64,000 nt of DNA from the NCBI RefSeq assembly GCF_988242995.1, contig NZ_OZ547043.1, one strand, 5' to 3'. Position 1 is the first letter of the stretch; the number at the start of each line of letters is the position of its first letter. This document shows, one piece after another, positions 34,079 to 36,420 of this stretch. A program made the position numbers and the translations under genes. The notes below the pieces were generated by a model, which was not told the DNA's origin, searched no databases, and saw nothing but the letters and a program-made list of their open reading frames with translations.

Positions 34079-34156
34079 CCCCCTGACGCATGTTTGCAGC
34101 CTGAATCGTAAACTCTCTATCGTTGAATCGCGACAGAAAGATTTTGGGAGCAAATG

Positions 34157-34657
34157 ATGCGCATAGTTACCGCTGCCGTCATGGCCTCAACGCTGGCAGT
34201 CAGTTCATTAAGCCACGCTGCTGAAGTCGGTTCAGGCGATAACTGGCATCCGGGTGAAGAACTTACGCAGCGCAGTACGCAGAGCCATATGTTCGACGGC
34301 ATAAGTTTAACCGAACATCAGCGTCAGCAGATGCGAGATCTTATGCAACAGGCCCGGCACGAACAGCCTCCTGTTAATGTTAGCGAACTGGAGACAATGC
34401 ATCGCCTTGTCACCGCAGAAAATTTTGATGAAAACGCTGTGCGCGCACAGGCAGAAAAAATGGCGAATGAGCAAATTGCTCGTCAGGTTGAGATGGCAAA
34501 AGTCCGCAACCAAATGTATCGCCTGTTAACGCCGGAGCAGCAAGCGGTTTTAAATGAGAAACATCAACAACGAATGGAGCAGTTGCGTGACGTGACGCAA
34601 TGGCAAAAAAGTTCATCGTTGAAGCTATTGAGTAGTAGCAACTCACGTTCCCAGTAG
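34157..34657 (+). CDS. cpxP: periplasmic Cpx pathway inhibitor/chaperone CpxP
   Basis: ORF 34154..34657; start [21 protein letters not shown] gives 166 aa. Confidence 0.95.
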
Positions 34658-34666
34658 TAAACCCTG

Positions 34667-34724
34667 TTTTCCTTGCCATAGACACCATCCCTGTCTTCCC
34701 CCACATGATGTGGGGGTTTTTTTT
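34667..34724 (+). ncRNA. cpxQ: possible CpxQ sRNA (derived from the cpxP 3' UTR) with a strong intrinsic terminator
   Basis: cpxP 3' UTR ends in the perfect hairpin CCCCCACATGATGTGGGGG plus T8; this hairpin could instead be the left-end hairpin of the adjacent IS200. Confidence 0.4.
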
Positions 34725-35405
34725 GTGCACAGAAAACCCCCAGCTAGGCTGGGGGTTCCGGAAAGCTTTCAGCTTTGAGCCAGTTATTAAAACCCCTTTT
34801 GATTTGTTAAAACACCTTGCGGTCTGGCAACTGCAAGTGTCAAACAAGAAATCAAAAGGGGGTCCCAATGGGGGACGAAAAGAGCTTAGCGCACACCCGC
34901 TGGAACTGTAAATATCACATAGTTTTTGCGCCGAAATACCGAAGACTGGCGTTTTACGGAGAGAAGCGTAGGGCGATAGGCAGTATTTTGAGAAAGCTGT
35001 GTGAGTGGAAAAGCGTACGGATTCTGGAAGCAGAGTGCTGCGCAGATCATATCCATATGCTTGTGGAAATCCCACCCAAAATGAGCGTATCCGGCTTTAT
35101 GGGATATCTGAAAGGGAAAAGCAGTCTGATGCTTTACGAGCAGTTTGGGGATTTGAAATTCAAATACAGAAACAGGGAGTTCTGGTGCCGAGGGTACTAT
35201 GTCGATACGGTGGGTAAGAACACGGCGAAGATACGTGACTACATAAAGCACCAGCTTGAAGAGGATAAAATGGGGGAGCAGTTATCGATTCCATATCCGG
35301 GCAGCCCGTTTACGGGCCGTAAGTAACGAAGTTGAATGCAAATGTCAGATCGTATGCGCCTGTTAGGGCGCGGCTGGTAACAGAGCCTTACAGGCGCATT
35401 TGAAA
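34700..35405 (+). mobile_element. IS200-like insertion sequence (IS200/IS605 family); boundaries approximate
   Basis: single ~152-aa Y1 transposase ORF flanked by structured ends (hairpins AAACCCCCAGCTAGGCTGGGGGTT on the left, TGCGCCTGT...ACAGGCGCA on the right); no terminal inverted repeats, as expected for IS200; intergenic region is about 0.7 kb longer than my recollection of K-12. Confidence 0.7.
34868..35326 (+). CDS. tnpA: IS200/IS605-family Y1 (HUH) transposase TnpA
   Basis: ORF 34817..35326; start MGDEKSLAHTRWNCKYHIVFAPKYRR; HUH motif HIHMLV; catalytic Tyr near the C-terminus. Confidence 0.85.
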   Translation: MGDEKSLAHTRWNCKYHIVFAPKYRRLAFYGEKRRAIGSILRKLCEWKSVRILEAECCADHIHMLVEIPPKMSVSGFMGYLKGKSSLMLYEQFGDLKFKYRNREFWCRGYYVDTVGKNTAKIRDYIKHQLEEDKMGEQLSIPYPGSPFTGRK

Positions 35406-35407
35406 AA

Positions 35408-35437
35408 CCTCCGGCTATGCCGGAGGATATTTATTTA
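35408..35437 (+). terminator. weak hairpin with an AT-rich tail upstream of fieF
   Basis: CCTCCGGCTATGCCGGAGG followed by ATATTTATTTA. Confidence 0.35.
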
Positions 35438-35517
35438 TCCTCAATTTGCCTGCTGCTTAATGCATTGCAGATGATTTGCTTCCGTTATACTAGCGTCAGT
35501 TGATAGCGGGAGTATTT

Positions 35518-36420
35518 ATGAATCAATCTTATGGACGGCTGGTCAGTCGGGCGGCGATTGCTGCAACGGCGATGGCTTCACTGCTATTGCTGATTAAAAT
35601 TTTTGCATGGTGGTATACCGGGTCGGTGAGTATTCTCGCCGCGCTGGTGGATTCGCTGGTGGATATCGGCGCGTCGTTGACGAATTTACTGGTGGTGCGA
35701 TATTCCCTGCAACCTGCCGACGATAATCACTCGTTTGGTCACGGTAAAGCTGAGTCCCTCGCGGCGCTGGCGCAAAGTATGTTTATCTCCGGTTCGGCAC
35801 TATTCCTCTTTTTGACGGGTATTCAACATCTGATATCTCCAACACCGATGACAGATCCAGGCGTCGGGGTAATCGTGACAATTGTGGCGCTAATTTGTAC
35901 GATTATCCTTGTCTCGTTTCAGCGGTGGGTGGTGCGCCGGACGCAAAGCCAGGCGGTGCGGGCTGATATGCTACATTACCAGTCTGATGTTATGATGAAC
36001 GGCGCAATTCTGCTGGCGCTGGGGTTGTCCTGGTATGGCTGGCATCGCGCCGATGCTCTGTTTGCATTGGGAATCGGCATCTATATTTTATATAGCGCGT
36101 TACGCATGGGATATGAGGCGGTACAGTCATTACTGGATCGCGCATTGCCTGATGAAGAACGGCAAGAAATTATTGATATCGTGACTTCCTGGCCGGGTGT
36201 TAGCGGCGCTCACGATCTTCGCACGCGGCAGTCAGGGCCGACCCGCTTTATTCAGATTCATTTGGAAATGGAAGACTCTCTGCCTTTGGTTCAGGCACAT
36301 ATGGTGGCGGATCAGGTAGAGCAGGCTATTTTACGGCGTTTTCCGGGATCGGATGTGATTATCCATCAGGACCCCTGTTCCGTCGTACCCAGGGAGGGTA
36401 AACGGTCTATGCTTTCATAA
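35518..36420 (+). CDS. fieF: cation diffusion facilitator (Zn/Fe efflux) FieF/YiiP
   Basis: ORF 35500..36420; start [24 protein letters not shown] gives 300 aa. Confidence 0.95.

Follow-up and report, generated by a model that had tools for sequence, protein, structure and literature searches.

An IS200-group element directly behind the intact CpxQ terminator in the cpxP–fieF spacer, and its preference for hairpins followed by T tracts

The spacer between cpxP and fieF in the 64,000-nucleotide stretch of DNA analysed here (contig NZ_OZ547043.1; the whole stretch is called the window below) is 860 bp long, compared with 148 bp in K-12 DH5alpha. What is the additional DNA, and has it left the end of the CpxQ sRNA, which lies in the cpxP 3'UTR, in place? 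The surroundings are otherwise ordinary: cpxA and cpxR on the minus strand are followed by cpxP, fieF, and pfkA on the plus strand, as in E. coli K-12, and the flanks are 99.2–99.6% identical to those of K-12. A three-way alignment with K-12 and the GN02461 genome showed that the extra DNA amounts to 712 bp, located behind the eighth T of the cpxP terminator and ahead of ATCCTCAATTTGCC. The sequence-only reading of the window, which had put the spacer at about 860 bp and the excess over K-12 at roughly 0.7 kb, was therefore accurate, and the alignment for which it called places the junctions at 34725 and 35436 with an ambiguity of 1–3 nt, since T's end the left flank and TTT ends the insert, allowing the boundary to slide. 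According to the published IS200 numbering, in which the left-end hairpin occupies nt 12–34 (PMC4513863), the element would be placed at 34724..35435. The base following ...TTTATT is variable among the IS1541 copies of Yersinia pestis, which suggests that the element proper ends with ...TTTATT. The coordinates used below are listed in Table 1; the start of cpxP given there is the RefSeq-annotated one, while the longest open reading frame begins at 34154.

Table 1. Features of the cpxP–fieF region, in window coordinates.
Feature	Position	Strand	Details and basis
cpxP CDS	34157..34657	+	ORF list; annotated cpxP position in K-12 DH5alpha and GN02461
cpxP 3'UTR / CpxQ sRNA region	34658..34724	+	K-12 alignment, fold
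Native cpxP/CpxQ intrinsic terminator	34698..34724	+	Hairpin 34698..34716, T8 34717..34724
IS200-group insertion sequence	34725..35436	+	712 bp; empty-site alignment, copies elsewhere
IS200 left-end perfect hairpin	34735..34757	+	AACCCCCAGC-TAG-GCTGGGGGTT; inverted repeat I7, fold
art200 (STnc490) antisense sRNA, expected position	34787..34876	-	Projected from PMC4513863 onto the tnpA start at 34868
tnpA 5'UTR stem-loop occluding the Shine–Dalgarno sequence (predicted)	34793..34861	+	Fold, inverted repeat I2, Rfam STnc490
tnpA	34868..35326	+	152-aa Y1/HUH transposase; Pfam, NCBIfam
Right-end imperfect inverted repeat	35354..35399	+	14-nt arms; inverted repeat I4
Right-end hairpin and T-rich tail	35408..35436	+	CCTCCGGC-TAT-GCCGGAGG (35408..35426), then ATATTTATTT
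Native fieF upstream region	35437..35517	+	81 bp, identical to K-12
fieF CDS	35518..36420	+	ORF list; annotation at the homologous position

The insert is a complete IS200-group element (IS200/IS605 family, tnpA only). The IS200-like element with a Y1/HUH transposase and structured ends that had been proposed downstream of cpxP was recovered in all its parts: the predicted protein matches Pfam Y1_Tnp (E = 8e-37, model positions 2–121 of 121) and the NCBIfam equivalog transpos_IS200 (144 bits, cutoff 55), both subterminal hairpins are present, and near-identical copies occur at other loci. Rfam STnc490 matches 34735..34858 with 146 bits, its model positions 1–23 being the left-end hairpin. Alignment of TnpA to the solved structures 2ec2, 2f4f, and 2a6m, which include IS608 TnpA, located the HUH motif at H61-I62-H63 and the catalytic tyrosine at Y125; HIH and YI..Q are conserved. 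Among the open reading frames inside the element, tnpA is the sole one with a family match and no tnpB was found; the other six-frame ORFs overlap tnpA, which is the one that the family scan covered.

Many E. coli genomes carry all 712 bp at 99.7% identity, each locus having flanks of its own, and among the matches listed at least 17 places in one genome carry near-identical copies; the presence of the same 712 bp at several unrelated sites indicates mobility. The window itself holds exactly one copy. It differs from the common E. coli variant only at nt 511–512 of the element (35235..35236, AG to GT), a dinucleotide change private to this copy that converts TnpA Gln123 to Arg (Q123R), two residues ahead of the catalytic Tyr125. 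No 100% identical copy was found in 5426 E. coli genomes.

The element has the anatomy described for Salmonella IS200, whose left-end hairpin (nt 12–34) is described as a bidirectional terminator, whose tnpA 5'UTR stem-loop sequestering the Shine–Dalgarno sequence spans nt 69–138, and whose 90-nt antisense sRNA art200 is complementary to the 5'UTR of tnpA plus its initial three codons (PMC4513863). The right-end hairpin is terminator-like on both strands (predicted fold of -20.5 kcal/mol, z = -3.95), and the ATATTTATTT tail that terminates the element is conserved in every copy examined. There are no terminal inverted repeats (the ends are GTGCAC... and ...TATTTATTT) and no target-site duplication. 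Read on the minus strand (35403..35474), the right-end hairpin also matches the Rfam Ysr202 model at the 3' end of the latter, with 28 bits against a far higher gathering score; the Yersinia sRNA Ysr202 may accordingly end in the right end of an IS1541 copy acting as its terminator. The exact 23-nt left-end hairpin was further encountered in metagenome-assembled genomes (MAGs) of Bacillota, Peptococcaceae, Mailhella/Desulfovibrio, Oxalobacter, Elusimicrobia, and Saccharibacteria, often at contig ends. These occurrences in distant lineages could be due to contamination in binning or to a single IS200 lineage having spread widely by horizontal transfer.

The position of the left junction relative to CpxQ depends on which of two successive hairpins belongs to the host. 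In general, CpxQ is defined by its release through RNase E and by an accumulation that depends on Hfq. It is an sRNA of about 60 nt that covers nearly all of the cpxP 3'UTR (PMC9438474). The corresponding 67 nt in the window differ from K-12 by a C-to-A change of one loop base, A being the majority allele of the terminator loop in E. coli. The predicted fold (-17.4 kcal/mol) is identical in structure to that of K-12 with a complete U8 tail; thus, the region combines the conserved cpxP 3'UTR sequence with an intrinsic terminator carrying a U tract, as expected for CpxQ. The terminator hairpin, found by a terminator scan and as inverted repeat I8, is CCCCCACATGATGTGGGGG followed by T8, and K-12, which has no insertion sequence here, carries the CCCCCACATGATGTGGGGG-type hairpin and T8 with the one loop base different. 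Excision of 34725..35436 in silico yielded a 74-nt empty site with exact matches in 3742 of 5420 E. coli records, indicating that nothing was duplicated or lost at insertion. Since the hairpin and T8 are found in K-12 and in the empty-site genomes, the hairpin at 34698..34724 is, judged from these alignments, the native cpxP/CpxQ terminator and not the IS200 left end, which is the next hairpin (34735..34757). The sequence-only reading had left both assignments of the first hairpin open, and with them an insertion either right after CpxQ or in place of its terminator; the first member of each pair holds and the second falls, the terminator being present in the empty K-12 site. The junction creates a weak palindrome, GGGTTTTTTTTGTGCAC / GTGCACAGAAAACCCCC (inverted repeat I3), which displaces neither hairpin in the predicted minimum-energy fold, and the CpxQ terminator hairpin is retained in the modelled read-through RNA. 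For annotators, the practical consequence is that tandem hairpins should be expected at IS200 left junctions, the first belonging to the host gene.

A separate observation concerns the Rfam family Hrs1 (RF02628, 'Hfq-regulated sRNA 1'), which aligns over its full length to the minus strand at 34652..34724 with 44.5 bits against a gathering score of 56.4. Its consensus opens with A7 and then a hairpin, which is a terminator read backwards, and Hrs1 thus appears to be a homologue of CpxQ whose model was built on the wrong strand. On the strand of CpxQ itself, there was no match to an Rfam family.

The placement of the element behind a terminator proved to be the usual one. A scan for exact matches to the left-end hairpin, with one genome per species, returned at least 120 stretches; among the matches listed are Yersinia, Vibrio, Brenneria, Dickeya, Edwardsiella, and Pluralibacter, as well as MAGs assigned to Bacillota, Mailhella, Desulfovibrio, Oxalobacter, and Saccharibacteria. 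In nearly all matches listed, a GC-rich hairpin with a T-rich tail lies directly 5' of the 10-nt leader of the element, GTGCACAGAA or its variants. We folded the 45 nt upstream of the element in 125 unique left flanks drawn from the matches listed (Yersinia, Vibrio, and Brenneria, and MAGs of Bacillota, Mailhella, and Oxalobacter), applying a Mann–Whitney rank test and a threshold of -12 kcal/mol. The median fold was about -18 kcal/mol, and 94% of the flanks reached -12 kcal/mol or better, compared with 18% of random and 16% of T-rich control positions (p about 1e-62). This cut-off was used instead of a laxer minimum-free-energy criterion, which passed 34% of the T-rich controls; a detector restricted to perfect stems gave 77 of 120, an undercount. 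The predicted upstream fold ends at most 9 nt from the boundary, and positions -1, -2, and -5 are T in 112–123 of the 125 flanks, the exceptions at -1 coming from a leader one nucleotide longer.

The same arrangement, a hairpin and T tract followed by GTGCAC, was found at nine E. coli loci, namely after ybiJ, amtB, pckA, hrpA, nagD, ybiR, aroA, and cpxP and in the yhaH/yqjG spacer; at most of them the element is co-oriented with the upstream gene. In Y. pestis, some IS1541 copies stand in tandem, directly after the right-end hairpin and T-rich tail of another copy, and these head-to-tail junctions read ...TTTATT|GTGCCC or ...TTTATTT|GTGCCC, a wobble of 1 nt. As a general rule, the insertion point of IS200-type elements is directly 3' of a GC-rich hairpin and the T tract behind it, that is, of a structure with the form of an intrinsic terminator, and the cpxP–fieF site fits this preference of the element. 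The ends of 3'UTR-derived sRNAs are thus natural landing sites for such elements.

Terminator-like sequences have been reported to be over-represented upstream of IS200/IS605 elements (preprint 10.1101/2025.07.22.666184), so the association itself is not new. The preprint reads it as limiting transposase expression and thereby aiding persistence, and near-neutrality is to be expected of intergenic sites behind terminators; the pattern could accordingly be one of survivorship, with T-rich sites being hit widely and only harmless insertions persisting. We consider this improbable. T-rich control sites seldom follow strong hairpins (16% versus 94%), almost none of the 125 flanks lacks T at -1 or -2, copies sit in tandem at the right-end hairpin of another copy, and, as described below, one nucleotide position appears to have been hit twice independently. 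With placement exact to the nucleotide and orientation fixed, targeting is a better account than the persistence of harmless insertions. The intergenic bias may be strengthened by purifying selection, which cannot, however, account for placement to the nucleotide. We found no statement of the nucleotide-level target rule in the searchable literature, although older subscription literature may contain it; how the target is chosen is established for IS608 and ISDra2, while for IS200 itself no such account was found in the literature searched.

If insertion is targeted, the way in which the target is recognised can be outlined by analogy. In IS608, a short guide beside a hairpin pairs with the cleavage and the target sequence. 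By the same logic, the T tract of the target could find its pairing partner in GAAAA, directly 5' of the left-end hairpin, and TTTATT at the end of the element in GAAAAA 5' of the right-end hairpin, while the terminator, a hairpin with a T tail of 6–8 nt, resembles the right end of the element, a hairpin with a 10-nt T-rich tail. Both the pairing and the mimicry of the right end are drawn from IS608, and GAAAA is identical in every copy found, leaving no covariation to compare. Elements of the IS200/IS605 family move as single-stranded DNA and prefer the lagging-strand template (PMC5027513). The GC skew of the plus strand of the window is mostly positive. On the K-12 map, we take cpxP to lie clockwise of oriC on the forward strand, its sense strand being the lagging-strand template; from this position, the strand with the hairpin and T8 would be the lagging-strand template and would carry the top strand of the element, an assignment with which the positive skew agrees. 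There the terminator would fold as a DNA hairpin, and the Y1 transposase, handling single strands as in IS608, would act on it, one IS200-group copy being inserted at the 3' edge of the T8 of the cpxP/CpxQ terminator without target duplication. The element has the orientation of cpxP and fieF. We see about an even chance that IS200-group transposases choose their targets by structure in this manner, namely a hairpin and T tract on the lagging-strand template, read by GAAAA and mimicking the right end, with sRNA terminators as recurrent landing sites; if this is true, both the nucleotide-level rule and the structural mechanism would be new.

Insertions at the cpxP–fieF site are rare. Among 5426 complete E. 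coli genomes, only one, GN02461, carries an insert; the empty site is found in 5413 genomes. Metagenome contigs, scanned for an exact CpxQ-terminator/IS200 junction with T7 to T9 allowed, gave no match. The GN02461 insert is IS200C, which differs from the element in the window at 29 of 712 nt (about 4%), with the differences distributed over nt 53–667. It follows a T7 tract, while the element in the window follows T8, and both alleles occur as empty sites, T7 in 59 records. The flanks of the two insertions differ at 12 of 3157 positions, comparable to the distance between K-12 and the window. Because of the 4% divergence of the elements, the different T tracts, and a flank distance similar to that from K-12, we read the two insertions as probably independent events at the same nucleotide position. 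An IS200C copy in EC581, with an apparent partial CpxQ terminator upstream, was examined as a further candidate and rejected, since the terminator is actually that of aroA and the similarity is due to chance.

The alternative, that the window and GN02461 share one ancestral insertion and the 4% difference arose later by gene conversion, would remove the case for recurrent targeting at this site. The two elements do have the same position, orientation, and A-loop terminator allele, and genomes rich in IS200 copies could supply conversion donors. However, conversion would have to have replaced nearly the whole element to account for differences so widely spread, the flanks are about as far from each other as the window is from K-12, each T-tract length is also known as an empty site, and 5413 genomes have the empty site. 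Given the strong general preference for terminators, a second hit is in any case unsurprising. Shared ancestry thus appears quite improbable to us. The insertion in the window is an ordinary strain polymorphism, a known insertion sequence at a new but unremarkable position.

The same CpxQ segment is involved in another kind of insertion. In GPEC1054, a P2-like prophage (integrase, Cox, OgrK, and tail genes) lies between cpxP and fieF. A 47-nt core, GACACC...GGGGGTTTTTTTTATC, is common to both of its junctions and consists of the 3' half of CpxQ and 3 further nt. This core corresponds to 34681..34724 and the ATC at 35437..35439 in the window, where the element splits it 3 nt from the right edge. 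As part of a joint reading that we rate as evenly balanced, the 3' 47-nt segment of CpxQ would serve as the attachment core of a P2-like prophage. The 74-nt empty-site query was found in 6249 places against 5420 records, about 829 extra, and copies of the 47-nt core duplicated by prophages may be common in E. coli.

What the insertion means for its neighbours follows from what it left in place: the CpxQ sequence, the terminator hairpin with its U tract, and the 81 bp upstream of fieF are all intact. CpxQ is probably made and terminated as usual, at its own terminator, and on this evidence the suspected influence on how the CpxQ 3' end forms, or on read-through into fieF, is unlikely. Transcripts reading through from cpxP would meet first the left-end and then the right-end hairpin, and the element would be insulated by the left-end hairpin, the occluded ribosome-binding site, antisense art200, and the right-end hairpin with its T-rich tail. 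The sequence just 3' of the U tract has changed from ATCCTC to GTGCAC (6 or more nt), and sequence at such a position can modulate termination, the efficiency of which may be slightly altered here. fieF keeps its own upstream region, which presumably holds its promoter: TTGCAG-15 nt-TATACT is legible there as a candidate, and a consensus scan of the region found no sigma-70 promoter. Altogether, we infer that the insertion is close to neutral; it matters little for the locus and is best treated as a neutral strain marker.

One could instead suppose a selected regulatory effect, be it stronger insulation of fieF from Cpx-induced read-through from cpxP, IS200 RNAs acting in trans (art200 or fragments of the tnpA 5'UTR), or the splitting of a prophage attachment site. 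The element does add two terminator-like hairpins between cpxP and fieF and splits the core common to both prophage junctions, and RNAs derived from the IS200 5'UTR are reported to regulate Salmonella genes (PMC5435999). Yet insulating hairpins and IS200 RNAs belong to every IS200 copy, and the insertion is nearly absent from the population (5426 genomes yielded no identical case and a single independent one, the metagenome scan nothing), which gives no sign of selection; we regard an effect of this kind as very doubtful. Finally, the idea that IS200 destroyed or replaced the CpxQ terminator, with the hairpin at 34698..34724 being the left end of the element and CpxQ ending at a structure borne by it, has practically nothing left to recommend it, since the likeness of the two hairpins (CCCCCA...GGGGG, 18 nt apart) and a weak minus-strand pseudo-hit to STnc490 that covers both and is spurious (E = 0.059) face a refutation by the empty-site alignment, in which K-12 and thousands of genomes without the element have the same hairpin and T8, while other copies start at GTGCAC after unrelated hairpins and the Rfam model of the IS200 left end begins at 34735.

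The explanation that we consider highly probable as a whole is therefore a single insertion of an IS200-group element after an intact CpxQ terminator, directed by the target preference of the element and nearly neutral in effect. Its closest relative is an unnamed E. coli IS200 variant (TnpA WP_000502112.1) with the same length of 712 bp, the same ends and hairpins, and a 152-aa TnpA; it is 99.7% identical and occupies at least seven other loci, differs at nt 511–512 (Q123R here), and is not seen at the cpxP–fieF location in 5426 genomes. IS200C shares the length, ends, hairpins, and 152-aa TnpA at about 96% identity. Salmonella IS200 has the same left-end terminator hairpin, stem-loop sequestering the Shine–Dalgarno sequence, art200/STnc490 region, and single tnpA, but is 707 bp long rather than 712 bp (PMC4513863). 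Yersinia IS1541 has the same architecture, an identical left-end hairpin, and about 86.5% identity, and is likewise placed after a hairpin and T tract; it differs in its length of 710 bp, its GTGCCC leader, and a far higher copy number in Yersinia.

More distant parallels are IS608 and ISDra2, which also have a Y1/HUH TnpA, subterminal hairpins, no target duplication, and insertion 3' of a short target, together with the link to the lagging-strand template proposed here for the element in the window. IS608 targets TTAC and ISDra2 targets TTGAT, and we know of no requirement for a target hairpin in either. In contrast, the target of the element in the window is a T tract after a hairpin, its left-end hairpin lies 10 nt from the boundary, and it has no tnpB. 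Group IIC introns, which are mobile and insert just downstream of intrinsic terminator stem-loops, offer an analogy only, since they are retroelements with a ribozyme and a reverse transcriptase whose mechanism is unrelated to that of IS200.
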